32,000 nt of DNA, taken from the NCBI GenBank assembly GCA_963675915.1, contig OY780959.1, forward strand, positions 1,440,001-1,472,000, written 5' to 3'. This DNA comes from Coprobacillaceae bacterium. GTDB lineage: Bacteria > Bacillota_I > Bacilli_A > Erysipelotrichales > Coprobacillaceae. The notes beneath the pieces were generated by a model, which saw nothing but the letters and a program-made list of their open reading frames with translations, was not told where the DNA came from and made no database searches. Both the position numbers and the translations under genes were made by a program. Shown one piece after another: positions 1,748-30,885 of this stretch (position 1 is its first letter; every line of letters starts with the position of its first letter).

Positions 1748-1797
1748 AAAAAAAGAGCTCAACAGTCCTAGGCTTGTGCCCAGACGGTCGGCTCTTA
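1748..1797 (-). terminator. Intrinsic terminator acting as the riboswitch expression platform
   Basis: The minus strand reads AAGAGC-CGAC-C-GUCUGGGC-acaa-GCCUAGGAC-u-GUUG-a-GCUCUU followed by U7. The 5' arm contains the aptamer 3' subdomain (CCGACCGUCUGGGC), so aptamer folding and terminator formation are mutually exclusive. Confidence 0.6.
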
Positions 1798-1845
1798 CGA
1801 TTATACTTCATGTGGTCAATTCCACTTCCGTCAGTCGTATAACTA
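1777..1845 (-). promoter_or_regulatory. ZTP (pfl-motif) riboswitch aptamer in the fhs leader
   Basis: The minus-strand RNA reads ACGACUGACGGAAGUGGAAUUGACCACAUGAAG..(linker)..GAGCCGACCGUCUGGGCA. This resembles the two-subdomain ZTP consensus (..GACUGGCG..GGUGG..CCACC.. plus CCGACCGCCUGGGCA). The pseudoknot pair covaries (GACGG/CCGUC instead of GGCG/CGCC). The genomic context, upstream of fhs, is classic for ZTP. Confidence 0.7.
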
Positions 1846-1850
1846 AGCAC

Positions 1851-3146: not shown

Positions 3147-3217
3147 CCTCCTAGTGGACAAAAAGCCGCTACAATATCAAGTTGCAATCATTACAATATG
3201 AAAGGAGTATTTCAAAG

Positions 3218-3910
3218 ATGAATTACACACACGAAATCGAACAAATGCAATGTGTCAAAATTGGTGCATCGCATGGTTGCGCTCCAATTCCTCAAGAAGG
3301 AAAATGGGTATACTCAAGACAAATCACTGATATTTCAGGATTAACTCACGGTGTTGGTTGGTGTGCTCCTCAACAAGGTGCTTGTAAATTAACATTAAAC
3401 GTTAAAGAAGGTATCATTGAAGAAGCATTAATCGAAACTATCGGATGTTCAGGAATGACTCACTCTGCTGCAATGGCTTCAGAAGCTATCGTAGGGAAAA
3501 CAGTATTAGAAGCATTAAACACAGACTTAGTTTGTGATGCTATCAACACTGCAATGAGAGAATTATTCTTACAAATCGTTTACGGACGTTCTCAAACTGC
3601 ATTCTCAGAAGGTGGATTACCAGTTGGTGCCGGACTTGAAGATTTAGGTAAAGGTTTAAGATCTCAAGTTGGTACAACTTATGCTACTAAAGCAAAAGGA
3701 CCACGTTACTTAGAGTTAGCTGAGGGATATATTACTCGTTTAGGTTTAGATGCTGATGGTGAAACTTGCGGGTACGAATTCATTTCTCTTGGAATTATGA
3801 TGGATTTAATCAAAAAAGGTAAAGATGCTAATGAAGCTATGGCCGAAGCTACAAAAACTTACGGTAGATTCGCTGATGCAGCTACATACATCGATCCAAG
3901 ATGCGAGTAG
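3218..3910 (+). CDS. NifU/IscU-like iron-sulfur scaffold-domain protein with a C-terminal extension
   Basis: The track ORF starts at 3182, but the ATG at 3218 (MNYTHEIEQ...) has an AAAGGAG SD 10 nt upstream. The IscU-like Cys pattern is present (GWCAPQQGACKL..., ETIGCSGMTHSAAMASEAIVGKT..., LVCDAI). Codon usage looks like that of a highly expressed gene (tta, ggt, gct, cgt). Confidence 0.75.
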   Translation: MNYTHEIEQMQCVKIGASHGCAPIPQEGKWVYSRQITDISGLTHGVGWCAPQQGACKLTLNVKEGIIEEALIETIGCSGMTHSAAMASEAIVGKTVLEALNTDLVCDAINTAMRELFLQIVYGRSQTAFSEGGLPVGAGLEDLGKGLRSQVGTTYATKAKGPRYLELAEGYITRLGLDADGETCGYEFISLGIMMDLIKKGKDANEAMAEATKTYGRFADAATYIDPRCE

Positions 3911-3922
3911 GAGGAAGAGATA

Positions 3923-4921
3923 ATGCCATTATTTGAAAGTTATGACCGTAGAATTAATCAAATCAACGCTACATTAGCTCAATACGGGATCAAAGATCTT
4001 GATGAAGCAAAAGCTATCTGTGATGCTAAAGGTGTAGACGTTTACGAAATCGTTAAATCAACACAACCAATTTGTTTTGAAAATGCTTGTTGGGCATACA
4101 TTACTGGTGCTGCAATCGCAATCAAAGAAGGAGCTACTACTGCTGTAGACGCTGCTAAATTGATCGGGGTTGGATTACAATCATTCTGTATCCCTGGTTC
4201 AGTTGCTGACCAACGTAAAGTAGGTCTTGGACATGGTAACTTAGGTTCAATGTTATTGACTGAAGAAACTAAATGTTTCGCTTTCTTGGCTGGACATGAA
4301 TCATTCGCTGCTGCTGAAGGTGCAATCAAAATCGCTGAAGCTGCAAATCGTGTGCGTAAAGATCCTTTACGTGTTATCTTAGATGGACTTGGAAAAGACG
4401 CGGCTAAAATCATTTCAAGAATCAACGGATTCACTCACGTTGAAACTGAATTCGATTATGCTACTGGAGACTTAAAAGAAGTTTCACGTAAATCATACTC
4501 TGACGGACCTCGTGGAAAAGTAAACTGCTATGGTGCTGATGACGTACGTGAAGGTGTTGCAATCATGCACCGTGAAGGTGTTGACGTATCAATCACTGGT
4601 AACTCAACTAACCCTACACGTTTCCAACATCCAGTTGCTGGAACATACAAAAAAGAATGTTTAGAACAAGGTAAAAAATACTTCTCAGTAGCATCTGGTG
4701 GTGGTACTGGACGTACATTACACCCTGATAACATGGCTGCTGGTCCTGCTTCTTACGGTATGACAGATACAATGGGAAGAATGCATAGTGATGCTCAATT
4801 CGCTGGTTCTTCTTCAGTACCTGCTCACGTTGAGATGATGGGATTAATCGGTATGGGTAACAACCCAATGGTTGGTGCTACTGTTGCCGTTGCTGTTGCT
4901 CTTGAAGAAGCTTCTAAATAA
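3923..4921 (+). CDS. GGGtGRT-motif protein (conserved family of unknown function)
   Basis: 332-aa ORF containing the eponymous SVASGGGTGRTLHPDN motif. The start lies 12 nt after the upstream stop, with a GGAGGAAGAG SD. Codon bias matches the upstream gene. Confidence 0.85.
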   Translation: MPLFESYDRRINQINATLAQYGIKDLDEAKAICDAKGVDVYEIVKSTQPICFENACWAYITGAAIAIKEGATTAVDAAKLIGVGLQSFCIPGSVADQRKVGLGHGNLGSMLLTEETKCFAFLAGHESFAAAEGAIKIAEAANRVRKDPLRVILDGLGKDAAKIISRINGFTHVETEFDYATGDLKEVSRKSYSDGPRGKVNCYGADDVREGVAIMHREGVDVSITGNSTNPTRFQHPVAGTYKKECLEQGKKYFSVASGGGTGRTLHPDNMAAGPASYGMTDTMGRMHSDAQFAGSSSVPAHVEMMGLIGMGNNPMVGATVAVAVALEEASK

Positions 4922-6894: not shown

Positions 6895-8325
<1,431 letters not shown>

Positions 8326-8427: not shown

Positions 8428-9321
8428 TTACTTAAGATGTTTTCTCACAAAGTCGATTACAATATCGAAGATTTCATCCTGATAGAATGCCGGTCCGCCA
8501 TGATCAGCGTAGCGCAGGCGGTAGAAATCAACTTCCTTGTCTTTGGCCTTGAGTTCCTGATAAAGTTTGATGCTGTGGTCAAAAGATACCGTGCGGTCCT
8601 TGGTTCCATGAATCATCAGAATCGGTGGGATATCCCGATCGAGATATTCCATTGGCAGCGTCTTGCGGGCCAATTCGTGATTATCAAGAACATTCACTCT
8701 GCCCAAAAATACTCCTTCAGGGCTGTCGGGCTGTTGATGATTAGGGGTATTCGGAAATCCGTCTGTCATGGTGATGTCGACAACCCCGTAAAAATCGATT
8801 ATCCCGTTGACAACACTTGGATAATCAAGATACAGTTCTCCTTGCAAATCCGCAGCGCCGGTCAGTCCCGTCAACAGGGCGGTATGTCCTCCTGACGAGT
8901 CCCCCCAGACAAATATATTATTCGCGTCAACCCGGTACTGATCCGCATTTTTCCGCAAAAATCTGATGGCATTCTTGGTATCCTCGACTTGAGCCGGGAA
9001 TGGTGCAATCGTACTCTCCCGATATTCCACAATTGCCACTACATAACCCCGATGTGCCAGATAGCCAAAATCTGCCACGTGATTATAAACATTCTGTTTG
9101 AACCAAGCCGAACCTTGGACAAATACCAGGGTGGGATATTTATCAGCTCCATTTTCCCTTTTTGAAGGCTGAATTAGCTGCAACTTCCGCGAAACATCCC
9201 CATAACAGGCATATTCCACATCAGGAACGTAGACGCTGTTCAATTTGCTGTCATCCATGACCAAGGTTTTGATCCCTTCAATCATGGTTTCATTTTCCTT
9301 GAATTCATCATAATCGTACAT
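8428..9321 (-). CDS. Alpha/beta-hydrolase esterase (acetyl/feruloyl-esterase-like), cytoplasmic
   Basis: The ATG at 9321 (MYDYDEF...) has an AAGAGGA SD, whereas the track start at 9339 is a TTG without one. The nucleophile elbow is VWGDSSGGH, and HGTKDRTV lies near the C-terminus. There is no signal peptide. Confidence 0.8.
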   Translation of the reverse strand: MYDYDEFKENETMIEGIKTLVMDDSKLNSVYVPDVEYACYGDVSRKLQLIQPSKRENGADKYPTLVFVQGSAWFKQNVYNHVADFGYLAHRGYVVAIVEYRESTIAPFPAQVEDTKNAIRFLRKNADQYRVDANNIFVWGDSSGGHTALLTGLTGAADLQGELYLDYPSVVNGIIDFYGVVDITMTDGFPNTPNHQQPDSPEGVFLGRVNVLDNHELARKTLPMEYLDRDIPPILMIHGTKDRTVSFDHSIKLYQELKAKDKEVDFYRLRYADHGGPAFYQDEIFDIVIDFVRKHLK

Positions 9322-9370
9322 TTTCTGTCCTCTTTTCAATAATTTTAAGCTCAGGATGGGTGACTATTAA

Positions 9371-9392
9371 AACCCGGATTGACCCTGGTTCC
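9371..9392 (-). terminator. Terminator-like hairpin inside the esterase 5' leader (possible attenuator)
   Basis: The minus strand reads AACCAGGG-ucaa-UCCGGGUU followed by UUUUAAU. It lies about 50 nt upstream of the esterase start and downstream of the 9462-9490 promoter. Confidence 0.3.
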
Positions 9393-9461
9393 AACTGATA
9401 TCATTAATATTATTGCAATGATAATCCCCCAGTGAAACTCTCACCACCTGCTCATATCAAA

Positions 9462-9490
9462 ATTATATATTGTATTATAATACCTGTCAA
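9462..9490 (-). promoter_or_regulatory. Consensus sigma-A promoter for the esterase gene
   Basis: The minus strand reads TTGACA (9490-9485), a 17-nt spacer, then TATAAT (9467-9462). This implies a leader of about 130 nt. Confidence 0.6.
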
Positions 9491-9554
9491 TGTTGTCACA
9501 GTTTATTTTGATAACTACCTGTTCCAGCCAGTTTCAATCCGATTCGACAACACC

Positions 9555-9580
9555 AAAAAAGAGTCGCAAGTTGCGACCCC
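9555..9580 (-). terminator. Intrinsic terminator of the oxidoreductase gene
   Basis: The minus strand reads GGGGTCGC-aactt-GCGACTC followed by T6. Confidence 0.7.
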
Positions 9581-9605
9581 GTTTTGGTAATCATCCATCA
9601 GGATA

Positions 9606-10559
9606 TTATCTATTTGAAATTGAAAATTTAATTGCTTCGAGCAGTTCCATGTTTTCGAGATGTTCTTTGAAATCATACATCGGACTTTCAATGTTCCCCT
9701 TGGCCGCATTTTCAATCACGGCTGCAATTTCCATCGTCATATCATCACCGACAATCGGGAATTCTTTCTTGATTGGTTCGATTCCCTCGGCTTCGATTGT
9801 ATATTCGGTGATCCGGTTGAACATCGGAATCATGATAGTTCCTTTGGTTCCGGTCAACAAGGCAAAACGTTCTTTGTTTTGATCGACGGCTCCCTCAAGC
9901 ACGGCCTCGACCCCGTTGGCAAATTTGATATCTGCTTGGAAATAGGTCGGGATATTGCCATCCATCCGGCTGTCAGTGCTGATTTCCTGGATATCACTAT
10001 CTATTAGCGCAGTTGTGAATGCACTCAGATATGGTCCGACATCATACAGTGCGCCTCCCTGGGTCTGATCGAACAGGTATGATCCGCTTTCCTTAAGGAA
10101 TGTGGCATCAAAGCAGAAATTAGCTTCAATTTTCTTAAGTTCTCCAATCATTCCAAGATCATCGATCAGCTGACCGATCCCGTCATTGTATCTTGTTTTC
10201 ATTGCTTCCGAGAAATATGTTTCATTGTCACGGGCCGTCTGAATGACATGTTCCAGCTCGCCAAGAGTCAAAACCGCCGGCTTTTCACTAAGAACCGGAA
10301 TTTTTCGCTCCAACGCTTTGATAATCCACTCATAGTGATACATATGCGGGAGGGCGATGTAGACCGCCTCAACATTGCTGTCTTCAAGCAGACTTTGATA
10401 ATCGCGATGAACTGCAACTTCAGGATGGCCCTGGAGATATTCATCATCTTCCTCTAGAGATTTTGAGGCAATTGCGACTACGTTTCCCCCATCAGTAAAT
10501 TCGATGCTTTTTACAAATTTGCGGGCTATTTTCCCAAACCCGATAATTCCAAAATTCAT
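9606..10559 (-). CDS. Gfo/Idh/MocA-family NAD(P)-dependent oxidoreductase
   Basis: 317-aa ORF. The N-terminal Rossmann motif is MNFGIIGFGKIARKF. EKP is conserved (LSEKPAVL). The SD is GGAAGGAG. Confidence 0.85.
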   Translation of the reverse strand: MNFGIIGFGKIARKFVKSIEFTDGGNVVAIASKSLEEDDEYLQGHPEVAVHRDYQSLLEDSNVEAVYIALPHMYHYEWIIKALERKIPVLSEKPAVLTLGELEHVIQTARDNETYFSEAMKTRYNDGIGQLIDDLGMIGELKKIEANFCFDATFLKESGSYLFDQTQGGALYDVGPYLSAFTTALIDSDIQEISTDSRMDGNIPTYFQADIKFANGVEAVLEGAVDQNKERFALLTGTKGTIMIPMFNRITEYTIEAEGIEPIKKEFPIVGDDMTMEIAAVIENAAKGNIESPMYDFKEHLENMELLEAIKFSISNR

Positions 10560-11706: not shown

Positions 11707-13122
<1,416 letters not shown>

Positions 13123-24849: not shown

Positions 24850-24869
24850 TAAGGTACATGGAGGCAGTT

Positions 24870-25853
24870 ATGAACAAAGAACAACTCAAACTAACCCTGG
24901 CCAGTGATATCACTTACCAGAACAAGACCTACGAAGAGGTCATCGAACACTTTAACCGCAAATTCGAAATAGTCCCTTATAATGGGGATATATTGTATAT
25001 TTTCAACCACGATAGAGAGTTCAAAGGGCATGAACACATCATTGCATTACACCCTCGAGCAGCCACGGTAACCCCGATGCATATCTTCCATTATATCGTG
25101 ATTACTTACGTATATTCAGGCACACTAACAATAAATGTAGATGGCGATACTATCAAATTGCATCAGGGTGACCTGATAATTTTTGATAAACATGTGCCTC
25201 ATATGGTTGAAGAAACAACCGCCGATGACCTGGGAATCAATATTATCCTGGGAGAAAACTACTTTTCGAAGCGATTCATCAACCATCTCCCGACCGATCA
25301 CCTCAAAACCAAATTCATGTACGAGCTGATGAACAACCAAAACAGTCATATCCATTACCTGGTTTGCCGAACTGACAACGACGAGTTGACTCGGGACTGT
25401 ATCGACAACATTCTGTGCGAGCATTTCGATCCCGGTATCTGTTCTGAGGAGCTAATTGACAACTTCATCATGATTCTGGTTACCCAGCTATTTAGAAAGT
25501 TCGAATATGATACCAATCTTGATGTCAAAGAAATGCAGAACAAAGAATTGATGAGGGATATCGTCAACTACATCAATAACAACTTCCATGAAGGCAGCCT
25601 CAAGGAAATGTGTAACACCTTTGGTTATGACCCTTCATATACCAGCAAGTTGATCAAACAACACTTCGGACAGACTTTCAAACAGCTTGTCAACATCGAG
25701 CGAATGAAGAAAGCTTCAATTCTGCTCCACAACAAAACCATTCCCATCTATGAAGTGGCCGAAACGATTGGAATCAACAACCTGACTTCTTTCTACCGCC
25801 GATTCAAAGAATATGCCGGCTGCACTCCCCAGGAGTACCGGGACAAATTCTAA
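24870..25853 (+). CDS. AraC-family transcriptional regulator (cupin plus HTH), divergent from the PTS EIIC gene
   Basis: The ATG at 24870 (MNKEQLK...) lies 6 nt after a GGAGG SD. The cupin reads MHIFHYIVITYVYSG. The C-terminal HTH reads LKEMCNTFGYDPSYTSKLIKQHFG... and IYEVAETIGINNLTSFYRRFKEYAGCTPQEYR. Confidence 0.85.
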   Translation: MNKEQLKLTLASDITYQNKTYEEVIEHFNRKFEIVPYNGDILYIFNHDREFKGHEHIIALHPRAATVTPMHIFHYIVITYVYSGTLTINVDGDTIKLHQGDLIIFDKHVPHMVEETTADDLGINIILGENYFSKRFINHLPTDHLKTKFMYELMNNQNSHIHYLVCRTDNDELTRDCIDNILCEHFDPGICSEELIDNFIMILVTQLFRKFEYDTNLDVKEMQNKELMRDIVNYINNNFHEGSLKEMCNTFGYDPSYTSKLIKQHFGQTFKQLVNIERMKKASILLHNKTIPIYEVAETIGINNLTSFYRRFKEYAGCTPQEYRDKF

Positions 25854-25914: not shown

Positions 25915-27297
25915 TTAATCAATAACAATTTTGAAGACTTCTTTGATGGGAATACCAGTTTCTTTGGCAATCCGTTTGACATCCTCGAATTCAGGATACT
26001 GATAAATTTCATCTTGATGATATATTTTCTTGATTTTAACTTTTCCCAACGGCGAATCTTCCTCGACGATTTCCCGTTTCAAGACAAACCGGTCCTCATG
26101 ACGGAATCGAATTCCAATTGTCGTGGTTTCCTTGAAAACTATCTCTTTTAAAAGATCAACCTTATCTGGCGGACAAGTAACACTCAAACGGTAGGCCGGG
26201 CGGTTTTTCTTCATGAAGATCGGTGTAAAGAACACGTCCAAAGCCCCACTTTCAAACAGGCGTTCCATAGTATATGACATGATTTCACCGGTGCAGTCAT
26301 CGATATTGGTCTCCATGACCACTACGCCGCGGTCCTGAGCGGCAATATCGCCGTAGACCGCTTTAAGGACATTGGGAATCTTCAGATTCTTGGTCCCACA
26401 ACCCCATCCGATTTTTTTGATATTCATTGCCGGCTGTACCAGGTATTCAGTAGCCAATTCACTGATTATGGCCGCTCCGGTTGGGGTGACCAGCTCGGTA
26501 TCAATATCTATTTGTCTGGTGATTGCATCACTGGCCGCAAATATTTCAGTTGTTGCCGGTACCGGAACTGAAATCATTCCATGGGCACAGTTGATAAATC
26601 CATGACCGTCATTGACAACACTGCTGTAGATGACATCCGGATTCAAATGAGTGACCAGGATTGCGGTCCCGATAATGTCGACAATCGAATCAATTGCCCC
26701 TACTTCATGAAAGTGAACATTTTCAAGACTTTCATTATGAACCTTGCTTTCAGCCATTGCCACTCTCAGGAAAATTCGTTTGGCAAGCTCCTTGGCTTTT
26801 TCATCAATGCCACTGGCATCGATGATTTGATTGACATCATAAAGATTGCGGTGAACATGGCTGTGAGAATGATCATGATGATGATCCTCGTGGCTGTGTT
26901 CATGATGATGGTCTTCATGGCTATGTTCATGATGATGGTCTTCATGGCTATGTTCATGATGATGGTCTTCATGGCTATGTTCATGATGATGGTCTTCATG
27001 GCTATGTTCATGATGATGGTCCTCGTGGCTGTGTTCATGATGATGGTCCTCGTGGCTGTGTTCATGATGATGGTCCTCGTGGCTGTGTTCATGATGATGG
27101 TCAGTGAGATGAACATCAACATAGGTACCGGTTATCCCGTTTTTGATTTCTTTGGATACATGAATATGATATCCATCGACTTTGATTTTCTTAAGTTCCT
27201 CAATCAGATATTCGGGATCATCACACAATTCCATCAGTGCTCCCAAGGTCATATTGCCACTGATTCCGCTGGCACAATCAAAATATAATACTTTCAC
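25915..27297 (-). CDS. larC: LarC, nickel-pincer cofactor biosynthesis nickel insertase (cyclometallase), single uninterrupted ORF with an expanded His-rich tract
   Basis: I prefer the GTG start at 27297, which gives MKVLYFDCASGISGNM..., the canonical LarC N-terminus, preceded by AGGGGGG. The track start is TTG 27318. Family stretches include HFHEVGAIDSIVDIIG and GIRFRHEDRFVL. Confidence 0.88.
   Translation of the reverse strand: MKVLYFDCASGISGNMTLGALMELCDDPEYLIEELKKIKVDGYHIHVSKEIKNGITGTYVDVHLTDHHHEHSHEDHHHEHSHEDHHHEHSHEDHHHEHSHEDHHHEHSHEDHHHEHSHEDHHHEHSHEDHHHEHSHEDHHHDHSHSHVHRNLYDVNQIIDASGIDEKAKELAKRIFLRVAMAESKVHNESLENVHFHEVGAIDSIVDIIGTAILVTHLNPDVIYSSVVNDGHGFINCAHGMISVPVPATTEIFAASDAITRQIDIDTELVTPTGAAIISELATEYLVQPAMNIKKIGWGCGTKNLKIPNVLKAVYGDIAAQDRGVVVMETNIDDCTGEIMSYTMERLFESGALDVFFTPIFMKKNRPAYRLSVTCPPDKVDLLKEIVFKETTTIGIRFRHEDRFVLKREIVEEDSPLGKVKIKKIYHQDEIYQYPEFEDVKRIAKETGIPIKEVFKIVID
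26874..27103 (-). repeat. 27-nt in-frame tandem repeat (8 full units plus a partial unit) encoding (HHHEHSHED)n inside larC
   Basis: Units start at 26874, 26901, 26928, 26955, 26982, 27009, 27036 and 27063, with a partial unit at 27090. There are two sequence subfamilies, read on the plus strand. One is ..GGTCTTCATGGCTATGTT (4 identical copies). The other is ..GGTCCTCGTGGCTGTGTT (3 identical copies plus 1 variant). They differ only at synonymous sites. Confidence 0.95.
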
Positions 27298-28037
27298 TAC
27301 TTTTTCCCCCCTAGACAATTAATCGAATGAGCCATATATCCGGCCCCAAATCCGTTATCAATATTTACAACACTTACTCCGCTGGCGCAACTGTTAAGCA
27401 TCGACAGCAGTGCCGACAAGCCCTGGAAATTGGCACCGTAGCCTACCGAAGTGGGAACAGCGACAACCGGAGCTTCAACCAATCCACTTACCACTGAAGC
27501 CAAAGCCCCTTCCATTCCGGCAATCACCACGATGACACTGGCAGTTTTCAAGTCTTCCAGCCGATTAAGCAGACGGTGCAATCCGGCCACTCCTACATCA
27601 GCTATCTCCACTACATCATTACCCAGGAATTTTGCAGTAACCGCAGCTTCCCGAGCTACCGGCAAATCACTGGTTCCGGCACAAACAACAGCTATTTTCC
27701 CCTTGTTCATTTCCACTGTCATTTGTTGACAAAGCAGTGTCTTGGAAACTGCATCGTACTCGAATTGAGGGAATCTGTCTTTAAGCTTGCGATATTTGGC
27801 AAAGCTTATCCTGGTGGCCATAATGTTGCTCTGACCTCTAGATAACATGTTCTCGATGATTCCTCCGATTTGACTGGCATCCTTGCCCGCACCGTAAATG
27901 ATTTCCGGTGCTCCGGTTCTTTTTTGACGATCGTAGTCAATCACTGCATAGTCAATCGGACTGTCAATCAAAGATTTAGCCTCATCGATGTCCATTTTCC
28001 CTTCTTTGACACTCTCTAATATTTTTAATATATCCAT
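27297..28037 (-). CDS. larB: LarB, pyridinium-3,5-biscarboxylic acid mononucleotide synthase (PurE/AIR-carboxylase-like)
   Basis: 246-aa ORF. The PurE-like core is KIAVVCAGTSDLPVAREA...VIVVIAGMEGALASVVSGL...VVAVPTSVGYG. The SD is AAGGAG. Its TAG stop overlaps the larC GTG (TAGTG). Confidence 0.88.
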   Translation of the reverse strand: MDILKILESVKEGKMDIDEAKSLIDSPIDYAVIDYDRQKRTGAPEIIYGAGKDASQIGGIIENMLSRGQSNIMATRISFAKYRKLKDRFPQFEYDAVSKTLLCQQMTVEMNKGKIAVVCAGTSDLPVAREAAVTAKFLGNDVVEIADVGVAGLHRLLNRLEDLKTASVIVVIAGMEGALASVVSGLVEAPVVAVPTSVGYGANFQGLSALLSMLNSCASGVSVVNIDNGFGAGYMAHSINCLGGKK

Positions 28038-28060
28038 ATCCTTACCGCTCCTTTTCCGGC

Positions 28061-28089
28061 ATTAAAAAATCGAATCCACGTAGTTTCAA
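28061..28089 (-). promoter_or_regulatory. Possible internal promoter ahead of larB-larC
   Basis: The minus strand reads TTGAAA (28089-28084), a 17-nt spacer, then TTTAAT (28066-28061). It sits in the 105-nt gap after the DUF3842-like gene. Confidence 0.35.
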
Positions 28090-28142
28090 ATCAATTTCGC
28101 TTGATTTTTGTTCGTTACTTCATGTATCCGATTTCCCAATAT

Positions 28143-28550
28143 TTATTTGTGATTTTCACTGATCAACTTTGCTAGTTCATCAACGTATTCCTGAATGCTT
28201 TTTGGTGTAACCCCGACTACCGTAGCGCTGCATTTGCTTACCGGGATCAAATATTTGGCCGCTTCACTGGCACTGATTGCCCCAGCCATGGCTGGTGATA
28301 TCTCGCCATACATTGAATTGGCAAAACATAAACCAATCGGTCCGGCAATTATTTGCGCCTTTGAAACATTATAAATGATCGCATTTTCACCAGTGGCAAT
28401 TGCATCCGCTCCGCCTTTTTTGATATTGTTGGTGGCGATGGAATTGGTTCCCACCCCGATTACAAATACGTCATCAATATTCGCTTTGATAGCCTGAACA
28501 ATGCTGCGGCCTATTCCGCCGCCCTGTCCGTCGATTACAACAATTTCCAT
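28143..28550 (-). CDS. DUF3842-like small protein of unknown function, embedded in the lar cluster
   Basis: 135-aa ORF. The N-terminus is MEIVVIDGQGGGIGRSIV. Further stretches are GTNSIATNNIKKGGADAIATGENAI and GEISPAMAGAI. The assignment is by recollection of the family signature and was not searched. The start lies 9 nt after the larE stop, and the SD (TAGGAGA) overlaps that stop codon. Confidence 0.7.
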   Translation of the reverse strand: MEIVVIDGQGGGIGRSIVQAIKANIDDVFVIGVGTNSIATNNIKKGGADAIATGENAIIYNVSKAQIIAGPIGLCFANSMYGEISPAMAGAISASEAAKYLIPVSKCSATVVGVTPKSIQEYVDELAKLISENHK

Positions 28551-28559
28551 TTCATTCTC

Positions 28560-29333
28560 CTAATCATAACTTCCGCTAGTTATGCCGTTCAAGTCCAATG
28601 TTACGTACTTGAAACCCATTCCTTTGAGATTATCAATCAATTCATCATTCTTATATATTCTGTCAAAATCAGATTTTCCAACTTCGATCCGCGCAAGTTC
28701 ATCTTGCACTCGAACCCGGACATGGAAAATACCTTCTTGATGAAACAGGGCTTCCGCCTGATCCACCAGTTCCAATTTTTCTTTGGTCAGGATCGTTCCA
28801 TAGTTGAAGCGGGAAGCCAGACAGGCATTGGAAGGCTTGTCATGCGTCACCACGTTCATTTCTTTGGAGTATTTCCTGATTTCCTGCTTGTTCATATTCG
28901 CCATTGCCAATGGTGAGACAATCCCCAATTCACGGCATGCCTCAAGACCAGGGCGATATTCGCCTTCATCATCAATATTCTTGCCATCAAGAACAAAATC
29001 GATCCCATGTGCTCTTGCTTCATTGATTACCGCCGACATGACCTGAGTCTTGCAAAAATAGCAACGACGTTTATCATTGTATCTGAACTCATTGATTTTG
29101 AATACATCAAGTTCAACCTCGACATGGTTTACTTCCTGAAGTAAGGTTCTGGCATTGTCGATATCCTCCTTGGACATCATCGCTCCTATGCATACAACAC
29201 ACAAAACATTTTCCTTACCTAAAGTATCCACAGCTACATTCATCAGGAAATTGGAATCACAACCACCACTGTAGGCGATAGCGACCTTTTCGAAGGATCT
29301 TAACGTATCTTTCAATTTATCAAGTTTATTCAT
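28560..29333 (-). CDS. larE: LarE, ATP-dependent sulfur transferase of NPN cofactor biosynthesis (PP-loop ATP pyrophosphatase)
   Basis: 257-aa ORF. The PP-loop is IAYSGGCDSNF. It has CYFC (C91, C94) and SNACLASRF (C171). The SD is AGAGGAGGA. Confidence 0.88.
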   Translation of the reverse strand: MNKLDKLKDTLRSFEKVAIAYSGGCDSNFLMNVAVDTLGKENVLCVVCIGAMMSKEDIDNARTLLQEVNHVEVELDVFKINEFRYNDKRRCYFCKTQVMSAVINEARAHGIDFVLDGKNIDDEGEYRPGLEACRELGIVSPLAMANMNKQEIRKYSKEMNVVTHDKPSNACLASRFNYGTILTKEKLELVDQAEALFHQEGIFHVRVRVQDELARIEVGKSDFDRIYKNDELIDNLKGMGFKYVTLDLNGITSGSYD

Positions 29334-29442: not shown

Positions 29443-29502
29443 TCGTCACCAAGTTCAGCCTCATTTGGCGGTCCTAGAATAATTTTACCAGGACTTTGCC
29501 CA

Positions 29503-30885
29503 TCAGACAATCCGATATTCTTTCCATTTCCCCCCAAGATATCTTTTTACAATCAAAACCGACTTGATCGACCAGTCACCAATCATTGCCCAGGCAATTC
29601 CGACAACTCCCATATTCAGCCATATCCCGAACACGACCGAGAGCACCACCCGCCAGATCACGGTTGAAAATATTGACGCATACATTGTATACTTCACATC
29701 ACCGGCGGCCCTGAGCCCGGTTGACAGCGCGAAGGCTGTCGGGCACAAGAACGCATCGAACGAATTATGAATGATGCAAAGCAGAATAACCAGATTGACG
29801 ATTTCGACTGGCAAACTGTAGAGTTGCAAGACCAGCGGGATTATCAAAAGGAAAAACAGATTCCAGGCAATCCCCCCGATATAGGTAATCCGCAGCAGCT
29901 TTTTCATATAGTAATCAGCCGCATCATAATCGCCCGCTCCAACACAACGGCCGATAACCGTGATGAAAGCCGGACCCATGGCAATTATCGATAAGGCTCC
30001 CATTGCCCATAAACTTTGAGACACCCCATAAGCGGCAATCTGGGAAGTCCCAAACATGGCAACGATACTGCTAAGACCAACTTTGGCTATTTGAAACAGA
30101 CCATTTTCGACACTGTTGGGGATTGCAACTGAAAGAATCCTTGAAATCATTTCCTGGTTCCATTTGATGATTCGGTCCAGTTGGATATAAATAAGATTAT
30201 TCCGATTGAATGATATGACCAACATAATAATCGCAGCTACCGATCGCGCTATCAGCGAAGGATAGGCAACCCCGGCCACTCCGGCATGAAGGACGAAAAT
30301 CCCGATGGCATTACCGGCCACATTGATCATATTCATGACTATCGAGACATACATGATCGTCCTGGTTTTCGCCATGCTGCGATATAATCCGGCACAACTG
30401 TTGTATATCGCCAATGCCGGAAATGAAAAGGCGGAAATAACCATATATTTGACACATGCCTGCATCACGTCGTTTTCGACCTGGCCAAACACGATTCTTA
30501 ACAACTGGCCATTGAAAAAGATTACTCCAATCATCACGACAATTCCTATCATAGTAGTTATCATGACCAACTGGCTGGAAGCTTCGATCCCCCTCTCCTG
30601 TTCTTTTTTTCCGATATACTGACTGGCAACCACAGCCCCACCGGCCGCCATGGCCGAAAATATCATAATGAAAAAAGTATTCAGCTGGTTGACCAGCGAT
30701 ACCCCGGAAATTGCCGCTTCTCCTGCGTAAGAGATCATCAGAGTATCCGCAATCCCAATAAGAAGCATCAGGACCTGCTCAATCAACAAGGGGATGATCA
30801 GATCGACAAGATTTCGGTTGGAGAACATCATCGAACTGCGCTTTATCTTTTGCCTGGGTTCTATCAATCTTGAAATCATAACCAT
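29503..30885 (-). CDS. MATE-family efflux transporter
   Basis: 460-aa ORF predicted as a 12-TM protein. The N-terminus is typical of MATE (NLVDLIIPLLIEQVLMLLIGIADTLMISYAGEAAISGVSL). The start is either ATG 30885 or ATG 30879. Confidence 0.85.
   Translation of the reverse strand: MVMISRLIEPRQKIKRSSMMFSNRNLVDLIIPLLIEQVLMLLIGIADTLMISYAGEAAISGVSLVNQLNTFFIMIFSAMAAGGAVVASQYIGKKEQERGIEASSQLVMITTMIGIVVMIGVIFFNGQLLRIVFGQVENDVMQACVKYMVISAFSFPALAIYNSCAGLYRSMAKTRTIMYVSIVMNMINVAGNAIGIFVLHAGVAGVAYPSLIARSVAAIIMLVISFNRNNLIYIQLDRIIKWNQEMISRILSVAIPNSVENGLFQIAKVGLSSIVAMFGTSQIAAYGVSQSLWAMGALSIIAMGPAFITVIGRCVGAGDYDAADYYMKKLLRITYIGGIAWNLFFLLIIPLVLQLYSLPVEIVNLVILLCIIHNSFDAFLCPTAFALSTGLRAAGDVKYTMYASIFSTVIWRVVLSVVFGIWLNMGVVGIAWAMIGDWSIKSVLIVKRYLGGKWKEYRIV

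Follow-up and report, generated by a model that had tools for sequence, protein, structure and literature searches.

What does a small protein of the DUF3842 family do in the middle of an operon for a nickel cofactor? The question is raised by a 32 kb stretch of DNA from a Coprobacillaceae bacterium (GenBank assembly GCA_963675915.1, contig OY780959.1, positions 1,440,001 to 1,472,000; hereafter the window, with positions counted from its first letter), in which a DUF3842 gene stands amongst larE, larB and larC, the genes for synthesis of the nickel-pincer nucleotide (NPN), and in which no gene for LarA is found. Comparison with related genomes and with DUF3842 loci from other species demonstrates that the association with lar genes is real and repeatedly established, with DUF3842 as an accessory that accompanies NPN synthesis only occasionally and stands outside its core. 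As to its role, an accessory function in the supply of nickel to LarC, probably exercised by a nucleotide-binding protein, is the reading favoured herein, and is given about an even chance of being correct. The protein is very probably not the enzyme that uses the cofactor.

A DUF3842 gene translationally coupled to larE in an operon without larA

All four genes lie on the minus strand and are co-oriented in the open reading frame (ORF) listing of the window, in the order larE (28560..29333; 257 aa; Pfam NAD_synthase, 30.1 bits, and PP-loop), the DUF3842 gene (28143..28550; 135 aa), larB (27297..28037; 246 aa; Pfam AIRC, 57.4 bits) and larC (25915..27318; 467 aa as the longest ORF; Pfam Ni_insertion, PF01969, 452 bits, E = 1.9e-135). 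The original prediction, a reading of this stretch without database searches, had described larE, larB and larC as present and co-oriented, which both the ORF listing and the Pfam matches bear out; all three genes are complete. It had also seen a DUF3842-like protein in the 135-aa ORF, and a hidden Markov model (HMM) check places the protein in PF12953 (156.5 bits against a gathering cutoff of 28.5, E = 6.2e-46), with residues 3–128 covering profile positions 2–128 of 130. The same reading of the larE/DUF3842 junction (28551..28562, minus strand) is upheld by the sequence itself, GAT TAG GAG AAT GAA ATG G, where a GGAGA Shine–Dalgarno element overlaps the larE TAG and the DUF3842 ATG follows 9 nt past that stop codon; larE and the DUF3842 gene are translationally coupled. 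A spacer of 105 nt (28038..28142, minus strand) separates the DUF3842 gene from larB, and the larB and larC ORFs overlap by 22 nt. No terminator-like site was found by a terminator scan inside the block, including the DUF3842-larB spacer, and larE-DUF3842-larB-larC is one transcription unit.

The three lar products would account for the whole of NPN synthesis. LarB, a carboxylase/hydrolase acting on nicotinic acid adenine dinucleotide (NaAD), would carboxylate and hydrolyse this substrate in the first of three steps, LarE, an ATP-dependent sulfur insertase, would insert two sulfurs, and LarC, a CTP-dependent nickel-inserting cyclometallase, would insert nickel and thereby complete the cofactor. 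LarE shows the motif SGGCDS at residues 22–27 (the PP-loop ATP-binding SGGxDS), together with C91xxC94 and C171. Because these three cysteines match Cys92/Cys95/Cys172, the [4Fe-4S] ligands of Thermotoga maritima LarE (PMC9283937), the window protein would by its motifs belong to the [4Fe-4S]-dependent CXXC-C type, and not to the sacrificial-cysteine type of Lactiplantibacillus plantarum. Identity to the proteins of other lar clusters is 31–61 % for LarE and 51–65 % for LarB, the latter with many invariant columns. The Ni_insertion match of LarC spans profile positions 1–374 of 375, and at 467 aa the protein is long in comparison to the 390–446 aa of its relatives. Within larC, a tandem repeat at 26869..27102 on the minus strand (Tandem Repeats Finder: period 27 bp, 8.7 copies, 95 % matches) encodes approximately nine HEHSHEDHH units, with 47 histidines in 90 residues. 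A His-rich region is essential for LarC activity (PMC13510736), and the repeat would appear to be a recent expansion of this nickel-binding region; it is possibly a variable, slippage-prone tract.

With regard to users of the cofactor, none of the 28 window ORFs scanned (those of 110 aa or more that are plausible genes) matches LarA (Lar_N), as the original prediction had held for the 32 kb, nor do any match the Pfam family Aldo_ket_red, and a tblastn search of the window with aldo-keto reductase (AKR) queries gave no match. Two further ideas in that prediction have fared less well: that LarA proteins are the only established users, and that the DUF3842 gene fills a vacant LarA slot. The first is outdated, as passages of PMC13524815 (Nat Chem 2026) describe NphT, an AKR obtained by mining LarA-less lar clusters, which binds the cofactor (there named NPMN) covalently via Lys200 and places His144 on the nickel, and cite an ornithine cyclodeaminase that depends on the nickel-pincer adenine dinucleotide (NPAD). 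The second gives way to the finding that sister genomes have the same block beside genes for NphT-like AKRs with ferredoxin domains, the likely users.

These sister genomes are those of the closest DUF3842 homologues (57–98 % identity), which bear the names Coprobacillus, Thomasclavelia and Tannockella. Where the gene for an AKR with a ferredoxin domain is written AKR-Fer4, the order is AKR-Fer4, MerR, AKR-Fer4, larE, DUF3842, larB, larC in loci L081 and L086; AKR-Fer4, AKR, larE, DUF3842, cbiMQO, larB, larC in L090; and AKR-Fer4, DUF3842, larE, larB, larC, AKR-Fer4 in L083. Loci L087/L088 have larE, DUF3842, cbiM, cbiQ, cbiO, larB, larC, MatE, such that in these and in L090 cbiM-cbiQ-cbiO occupies the position of the 105-nt spacer of the window. 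A member of the group with no such block is L089, where DUF3842 stands between NUDIX and SDR (short-chain dehydrogenase/reductase) genes.

The NphT-like AKRs of L081, L083, L084, L086, L090 and L091 carry a C-terminal 4Fe-4S dicluster ferredoxin domain, and in the relatives (L081, L083, L084, L086 and L090) two types occur, one of 336 aa with both the histidine and the lysine, and one of 362–405 aa with the histidine only. For the Tannockella protein, NphT is the best match in the PDB (9YEB, E = 1.1e-27; the next match is at 5e-15), and D47, H106, H144 and K200 of NphT are aligned with identical residues. These AKR-ferredoxin proteins are plausible users because their best match is NphT, because the equivalents of His144 and Lys200 are kept and because the genes adjoin the operons, and they are most likely the cofactor users in this lineage; for the window, the corresponding NphT-like enzyme would be encoded outside its 32 kb. 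An AKR fused to ferredoxin is a variant of a newly described enzyme family, and suggests NPN chemistry that is coupled to electron transfer.

Fold and conserved residues of DUF3842

The family is small, comprising 1,362 clusters at 50 % identity (E ≤ 1e-3, 1.84 billion representatives searched), and nearly all members are stand-alone proteins of 130–145 aa. Conservation was computed on 106 sequences, namely the window protein and 105 representatives of the 50 %-identity clusters. Conserved family-wide are D7, G8, G10, G11, G14, G34-T35-N36, A52-T53-G54-E55-N56, G70, G73, G82-E83 and P103; all of the family motifs (DGxGGxxG, GTN, ATGEN and GE) are present in the window protein, the first as the glycine-rich loop DGQGGGIG at residues 7–14, which is of a phosphate-binding type. 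No histidine or lysine is conserved across these 106 sequences.

An AlphaFold2 model with alternating beta and alpha elements (mean pLDDT, the predicted local distance difference test, 90; pTM, the predicted TM score, 0.87) depicts DUF3842 as a small stand-alone Rossmann-like protein. Foldseek returned only weak matches to PDB entries (E ≥ 1.3e-3, TM ≤ 0.55), these being NAD(P)-binding Rossmann domains and a UbiX-like flavoprotein, and a search by sequence gave no match of DUF3842 to solved structures below E = 0.09. In the model, the conserved residues sit at or just past the C-terminal ends of strands, or in the loop before helix 86–94, and would thus form, with Asp, Glu, Asn and Thr residues, the crest at which Rossmann-like folds usually bind their ligands. 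Since the fold is Rossmann-like and histidine and cysteine ligands are lacking, the protein would act by binding a ligand rather than a metal, that ligand probably being a nucleotide or another phosphorylated compound. The features of nickel metallochaperones of the UreE, HypA, CooJ or CooT type are likewise not seen, there being no conserved cysteine or histidine metal ligands in DUF3842.

Three candidate kinships were tried and rejected. As a member of the SDRs, DUF3842 resembles these in its glycine loop alone, with adh_short unmatched at E-values up to 10 and an hhalign probability of 0.4 %. Remote homology to LarB/PurE received an hhalign probability of 0.14 %. For the GGGtGRT protein of the window (3923-4921), whose motif resembles the GGGIGRS of DUF3842, the hhalign probability is 0.35 %. 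In the library searched, no paper was found that connects DUF3842 with lar genes, nickel or cobalt (the sole text match being an unrelated Ralstonia study), or that joins CooT or CbiM to DUF3842.

The features of the protein bear directly on the proposal that DUF3842 is itself a new NPN-dependent enzyme, or a subunit of one, which replaces LarA. Its place within a LarA-less lar operon invites this idea, and a nicotinamide-like cofactor might in principle fit into a Rossmann-like fold. However, the protein has only 135 aa and shows no substrate-binding domain, histidine, lysine and cysteine are all without a conserved position, most members of the family are encoded far from lar genes, and the NphT-like AKR-ferredoxin genes beside the same operon in relatives already provide credible users. 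The proposal is accordingly held to be extremely improbable.

Gene neighbourhoods within and beyond the lar clusters

The wider distribution was assessed in 80 DUF3842 loci, one per species, mostly of Bacillota with a few from Spirochaetes, Thermotogae and Actinomycetota. Genes in the fetched loci were called simply as longest ORFs and clustered by BLAST, such that the counts are approximate, and genes of less than 50–70 aa were found by tblastn only. The enrichment of DUF3842 near lar genes that the original prediction had set as a test is indeed present, strongly and repeatedly: lar genes occur within 10 kb in nine of the 80 loci, and in six of these nine within 500 bp. If the genes were spread uniformly over ±10 kb, such proximity would have a binomial P of ~1e-6. 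When 96 DUF3842 sequences are arranged in a neighbour-joining tree, the lar-linked members fall into at least seven separate lineages, with the CooT-linked members forming two neighbouring clades and the cobamide-linked members one. In a survey anchored on LarB instead, DUF3842 was present in three of 80 metagenomic loci (L091, L145 and L153), each time immediately upstream of larE; L091 additionally has an AKR-Fer4 gene and genes for Nik-type permeases, and L145 a MatE gene. From the seven or more lineages and the three LarB loci it follows that the link is real, and that DUF3842 accompanies NPN synthesis only occasionally.

These data also speak to the view that DUF3842 is a mere passenger, with no functional tie to lar, and owes its position to an accident of gene order. 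The larE-DUF3842-larB arrangement is found mainly in one clade, the Erysipelotrichales-like relatives, for which a single insertion event could suffice. Yet the association recurs in the separate branches and in three further metagenomic lar clusters, lar genes lie within 500 bp far more often than uniform placement predicts, and the tight coupling to larE is conserved in relatives. An accident of this kind is therefore regarded as highly improbable.

A more serious alternative is the one originally advanced, in which the small protein would be a carrier or chaperone of the pyridinium nucleotide (NaAD, P2CMN, P2TMN, a CMP-activated intermediate or NPN itself), as a partner of LarE or a loader of the user enzyme. 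The part of this claim that stands is the intimate connection with larE. In the four larE-first relatives (L081, L086, L087/L088 and L090) the two genes are −1 to 5 nt apart, compared with 9 nt in the window, and the tight or translational coupling thus extends to all five. DUF3842 is upstream of larE or divergent from it in L083, L091, L145, L153, L004, L008 and L026, with some 110–150 nt between the genes where it precedes larE in L083 and L091. In Tannockella kyphosi (L084), which has no lar gene within 10 kb, an NphT-like AKR-Fer4 gene ends 3 nt before DUF3842. The Rossmann-like fold would suit a carrier, and the DGxxxGxG loop resembles the dinucleotide-binding TGxxxGxG. Against a carrier, 71 of the 80 species (~89 %) have no lar gene within 10 kb of DUF3842, only three of the 80 LarB-anchored loci include DUF3842, and there is no conserved lysine or histidine comparable to those by which LarA and NphT hold NPN. 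Adjacency to larE is, moreover, confounded, as in larE-larB-larC clusters larE usually comes first. Recurring partners of DUF3842 outside lar clusters are nickel/cobalt importers and CooT, and no lar gene accompanies the fusions to CooT or the cbiMQO-DUF3842-cooT modules in flanks of ~10 kb. On balance, a carrier or chaperone role is considered unlikely, though it retains some appreciable chance.

The supply of nickel to LarC is preferred because the informative contexts of DUF3842 have nickel in common: clusters with LarC and LarE, CbiM(N)QO- and Nik-type importers, and CooT, whether adjacent or fused. CbiM/CbiQ genes lie within 5 kb of DUF3842 in seven of the 80 loci, and Opp/Nik-type ATP-binding cassette (ABC) importers also in seven. 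The nickel-themed loci (lar, CbiMQ, Opp/Nik or CooT) number 19, or 24 if those with cobamide genes are added. Locus L023 joins two of these themes, in that a 357-aa LarC-like protein (8890-9963) overlaps the start of DUF3842 (9947-10414), with cbiM-cbiQ-cbiO following; its Ni_insertion match (E = 6.6e-54) covers profile positions 75–374 only, so that the usual N-terminal part is apparently lacking, and larB and larE were not found within 10 kb.

CooT is tied to DUF3842 both as a neighbour and by fusion. Its gene occurs 10–25 nt downstream of DUF3842 in seven of the 80 loci, mostly as cbiM-cbiQ-cbiO-DUF3842-cooT (tblastn), and amongst 131 immediate same-strand neighbours scanned with Pfam it is the most frequent specific family (six cases) after the ABC ATPases. 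Fusions of DUF3842 to CooT exist in at least 18 distinct 90 %-identity clusters, including two Desulfuribacillus species; in two of the fusions the CooT domain (PF10133) is recognised at E = 9e-25 and 2.5e-23, one fusion gene directly follows a CbiO-like ATPase gene, and the nickel-binding cysteine of the MCEA motif is kept in 12 of the 18. CooT is a 7-kDa nickel-binding protein with a Kd (dissociation constant) of 9 nM, a Cys2 ligand and a role that is unclear, and is present in some genomes without CO dehydrogenase (CODH) (PMC6006190). A CODH context was not recognised in the CooT-linked loci, where ORFs were listed and not Pfam-scanned. The recurrence of nickel/cobalt importers and CooT as partners argues for nickel supply rather than for the carrying or using of the cofactor. 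DUF3842 would then act in the cytoplasmic supply of nickel, perhaps also cobalt, between the importers or CooT on the one hand and LarC on the other.

A cobalt- or cobamide-related use within the family is suggested by further loci. Cobamide nucleotide-loop genes (e.g. CobU, CobQ, CbiB, CobS) lie within 5 kb in five of the 80. In one clade (L027, L041, L043, L044 and L057), belonging to Desulfotomaculia-like genomes and one Actinomycetota metagenome-assembled genome, DUF3842 lies between a 95-aa coiled-coil ORF and cobU, within a cobamide operon (cobQ, cbiB, cbiA, cobS). Mrp/ApbC genes are within 5 kb in four loci, and MatE genes in seven. Loci L001, L002, L087/L088 and L145, several of them from unrelated genomes, each have a MatE gene next to DUF3842 or lar genes. 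In L002 (10411-11558), from an uncultured Thomasclavelia, the larC that comes after DUF3842 is split into ORFs of 292 aa and 78 aa, and larB and larE were not found within 10 kb; this looks like a decaying lar cluster in which DUF3842 and MatE have been kept.

Several observations weigh against nickel supply to LarC. DUF3842 has no conserved histidine or cysteine able to bind nickel (106 sequences), and Cys107 is kept in only ~66 % of members; any role in nickel handling would therefore be indirect, or would proceed via unusual oxygen or nitrogen ligands. Within lar clusters it is almost always larE, not larC, that DUF3842 adjoins. The window itself has no CooT (tblastn queries with CooT gave no match) and no importer gene. 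Amongst the 18 CooT fusions, six have lost the MCEA cysteine, and a natural DUF3842-CooT fusion modelled with AlphaFold2 (pTM 0.68) shows two confident domains without a confident interface between them. Roughly three quarters of the sampled loci have no nickel-related neighbour within 5 kb, and Acetivibrio thermocellus, amongst well-known genomes, has DUF3842 in a housekeeping context. The commonest specific module, found in 14 of the 80 loci (L014, L024, L028, L034, L039, L042, L048, L050, L062, L069, L072, L074, L077 and L078), consists of an energy-coupling factor (ECF) S-component and a 359-aa P-loop kinase, and P0121 is a fusion of DUF3842 to a kinase domain like that of this neighbour; neither has an obvious tie to nickel.

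The last of these points fit another reading, in which DUF3842 would serve ECF/ABC importers in general as a cytoplasmic adaptor, or be a housekeeping protein that binds nucleotides. It would pass imported substrates on to the enzymes that trap them, for example kinases, CobU or CooT, and its presence in lar operons would be one special case, with no specificity for nickel. Beyond the S-component/kinase module and the kinase fusion, it draws on the ABC/ECF ATPases, which are the most frequent immediate neighbours (eight of the 131) and adjoin DUF3842 in 12 loci, on the cobamide clade of five species, where DUF3842 directly precedes the gene for the salvage kinase CobU, and on the many members in unrelated contexts. 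It would, however, leave unexplained the repeated independent recruitment of DUF3842 beside larE and larC, which are not importers. Nor does any signal name a vitamin as the substrate, as no riboswitch was found near DUF3842, the S-component or the kinase in the window and nine other loci. The 359-aa protein comprises an N-terminal domain without assignment and a uridine-kinase-like P-loop domain; with only weak uridine-kinase-like matches for the kinase and generic ECF matches for the S-component, the specificity of neither is assignable. A general adaptor is thus judged to be doubtful, albeit worth keeping in mind.

Returning to nickel supply, a broader form of it may be envisaged, somewhat more tentatively than the role at LarC itself. 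Herein, DUF3842 would be a widespread and hitherto unrecognised part of the machinery by which bacteria move nickel, and possibly cobalt: a small adaptor, able to bind nucleotides, that cooperates with CooT and with importers of the ECF or Nik type and feeds nickel to LarC. If so, NPN synthesis at low nickel would depend on DUF3842 for its efficiency, and cbiMQO-DUF3842-cooT would represent a self-contained "import and hand-over" module. How nickel gets from its importers to the enzymes assembling nickel cofactors is little understood, and the charging of LarC with nickel is not addressed in the structural paper on this enzyme (PMC13510736). DUF3842 is a testable candidate for a missing link, and its operons are of a size that could be reconstituted; a trafficking role, if true, would add a new component to nickel homeostasis, and provide a handle on how LarC acquires its nickel.

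Other features of the window and comparison with known systems

Around the operon, a MatE-family transporter gene (29503..30885, minus strand; Pfam MatE) is directly upstream of larE, and a promoter-like site 5′ of larE (29482..29510, minus strand; TTGTCT, 17 nt, TAAAAT, with a TG extension) comes from a consensus scan only, which is weak evidence. At the downstream end, an AraC-family regulator gene (24858..25853, plus strand; Pfam HTH_18, HTH_AraC and Cupin_2) is convergent with larC, and beyond it lie a gene for the EIIC component of a phosphotransferase system (PTS) and a rhamnose-utilisation cluster. Elsewhere, a glycoside hydrolase family 1 (GH1) gene on the minus strand is broken at 7942-7944 by a single in-frame TAG. 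The ORFs on either side, 6895-7929 and 7942-8307, match Pfam profile positions 5–112 and 118–452; the stop marks a pseudogene, an error of sequencing or a site of read-through, and an intact GH1 paralogue is present at 11707-13092. A NifU_N-like gene (3182-3910, plus strand) followed by a gene of the GGGtGRT family (3923-4921, plus strand; PF14057, 645 bits) forms an uncharacterised pair. A ZMP/ZTP riboswitch (Rfam RF01750, 53 bits) at 1771-1848 (minus strand) is upstream of an ORF of >551 aa that runs from ~1657 off the left end, and which we take, from its sequence, to encode formate-tetrahydrofolate ligase; a ZMP/ZTP riboswitch before the gene for this enzyme is the usual arrangement.

Of the systems with which the operon may be compared, that of L. 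plantarum, reportedly described by Desguin and colleagues in 2014, is said to comprise larA-larB-larC-larD-larE and the nickel importer larR(MN)QO. The window shares with it larB, larC and larE, and the relatives L087 and L090 have an importer of the CbiM(N)QO type inside the operon. Differences are the absence of larA and of an importer from the window, a LarE that is predicted to be of the [4Fe-4S] CXXC-C type, the DUF3842 gene coupled to larE and the expanded histidine repeat of LarC.

At the level of the protein, two families invite comparison. Class II metal chelatases (CbiX-small/CfbA) are alpha/beta proteins of ~130 aa that insert cobalt or nickel in a manner dependent on conserved histidines. 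DUF3842 is similarly small and alpha/beta, and occurs in nickel/cobalt cofactor contexts, but is without a conserved histidine, and no such chelatase is amongst the top Foldseek matches. With SDRs, in whose name several DUF3842 members are annotated by JGI, it shares the succession of strand beta1, glycine-rich loop (DGQGGGIG against TGxxxGIG) and helix, and there are weak Foldseek and HMM matches to alcohol dehydrogenase (ADH), SDR-type and other NAD(P)-binding Rossmann domains. In contrast to SDRs, DUF3842 is half the size and has no YxxxK catalytic motif.

The lar clusters of the NphT type (PMC13524815, PDB 9YEB), in those passages of the paper that describe them, are a further parallel for the operon as a whole, in that larB, larC and larE occur without larA; DUF3842 is not mentioned in these passages. 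The sister operons of the window are flanked by AKRs with the equivalents of D47, H106, H144 and K200. Whilst the window has no AKR, those of the relatives differ from NphT in their C-terminal 4Fe-4S ferredoxin domain, which NphT is without. For the small protein, a parallel is the delivery of nickel to CODH by CooT, CooJ and CooC (PMC6006190). DUF3842 has no metal-binding cysteine or histidine and falls outside the NTPases of the CooC, HypB or UreG class, and the window has no CooT; it is, however, a small accessory that clusters in the same fashion, and in many genomes it is followed by CooT or fused to it. The lar operon of the window is in itself ordinary, as versions without LarA had been known before and now have a partial explanation. 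What is new is that a DUF3842 accessory recurs, and that it is tied to CooT and to importers.

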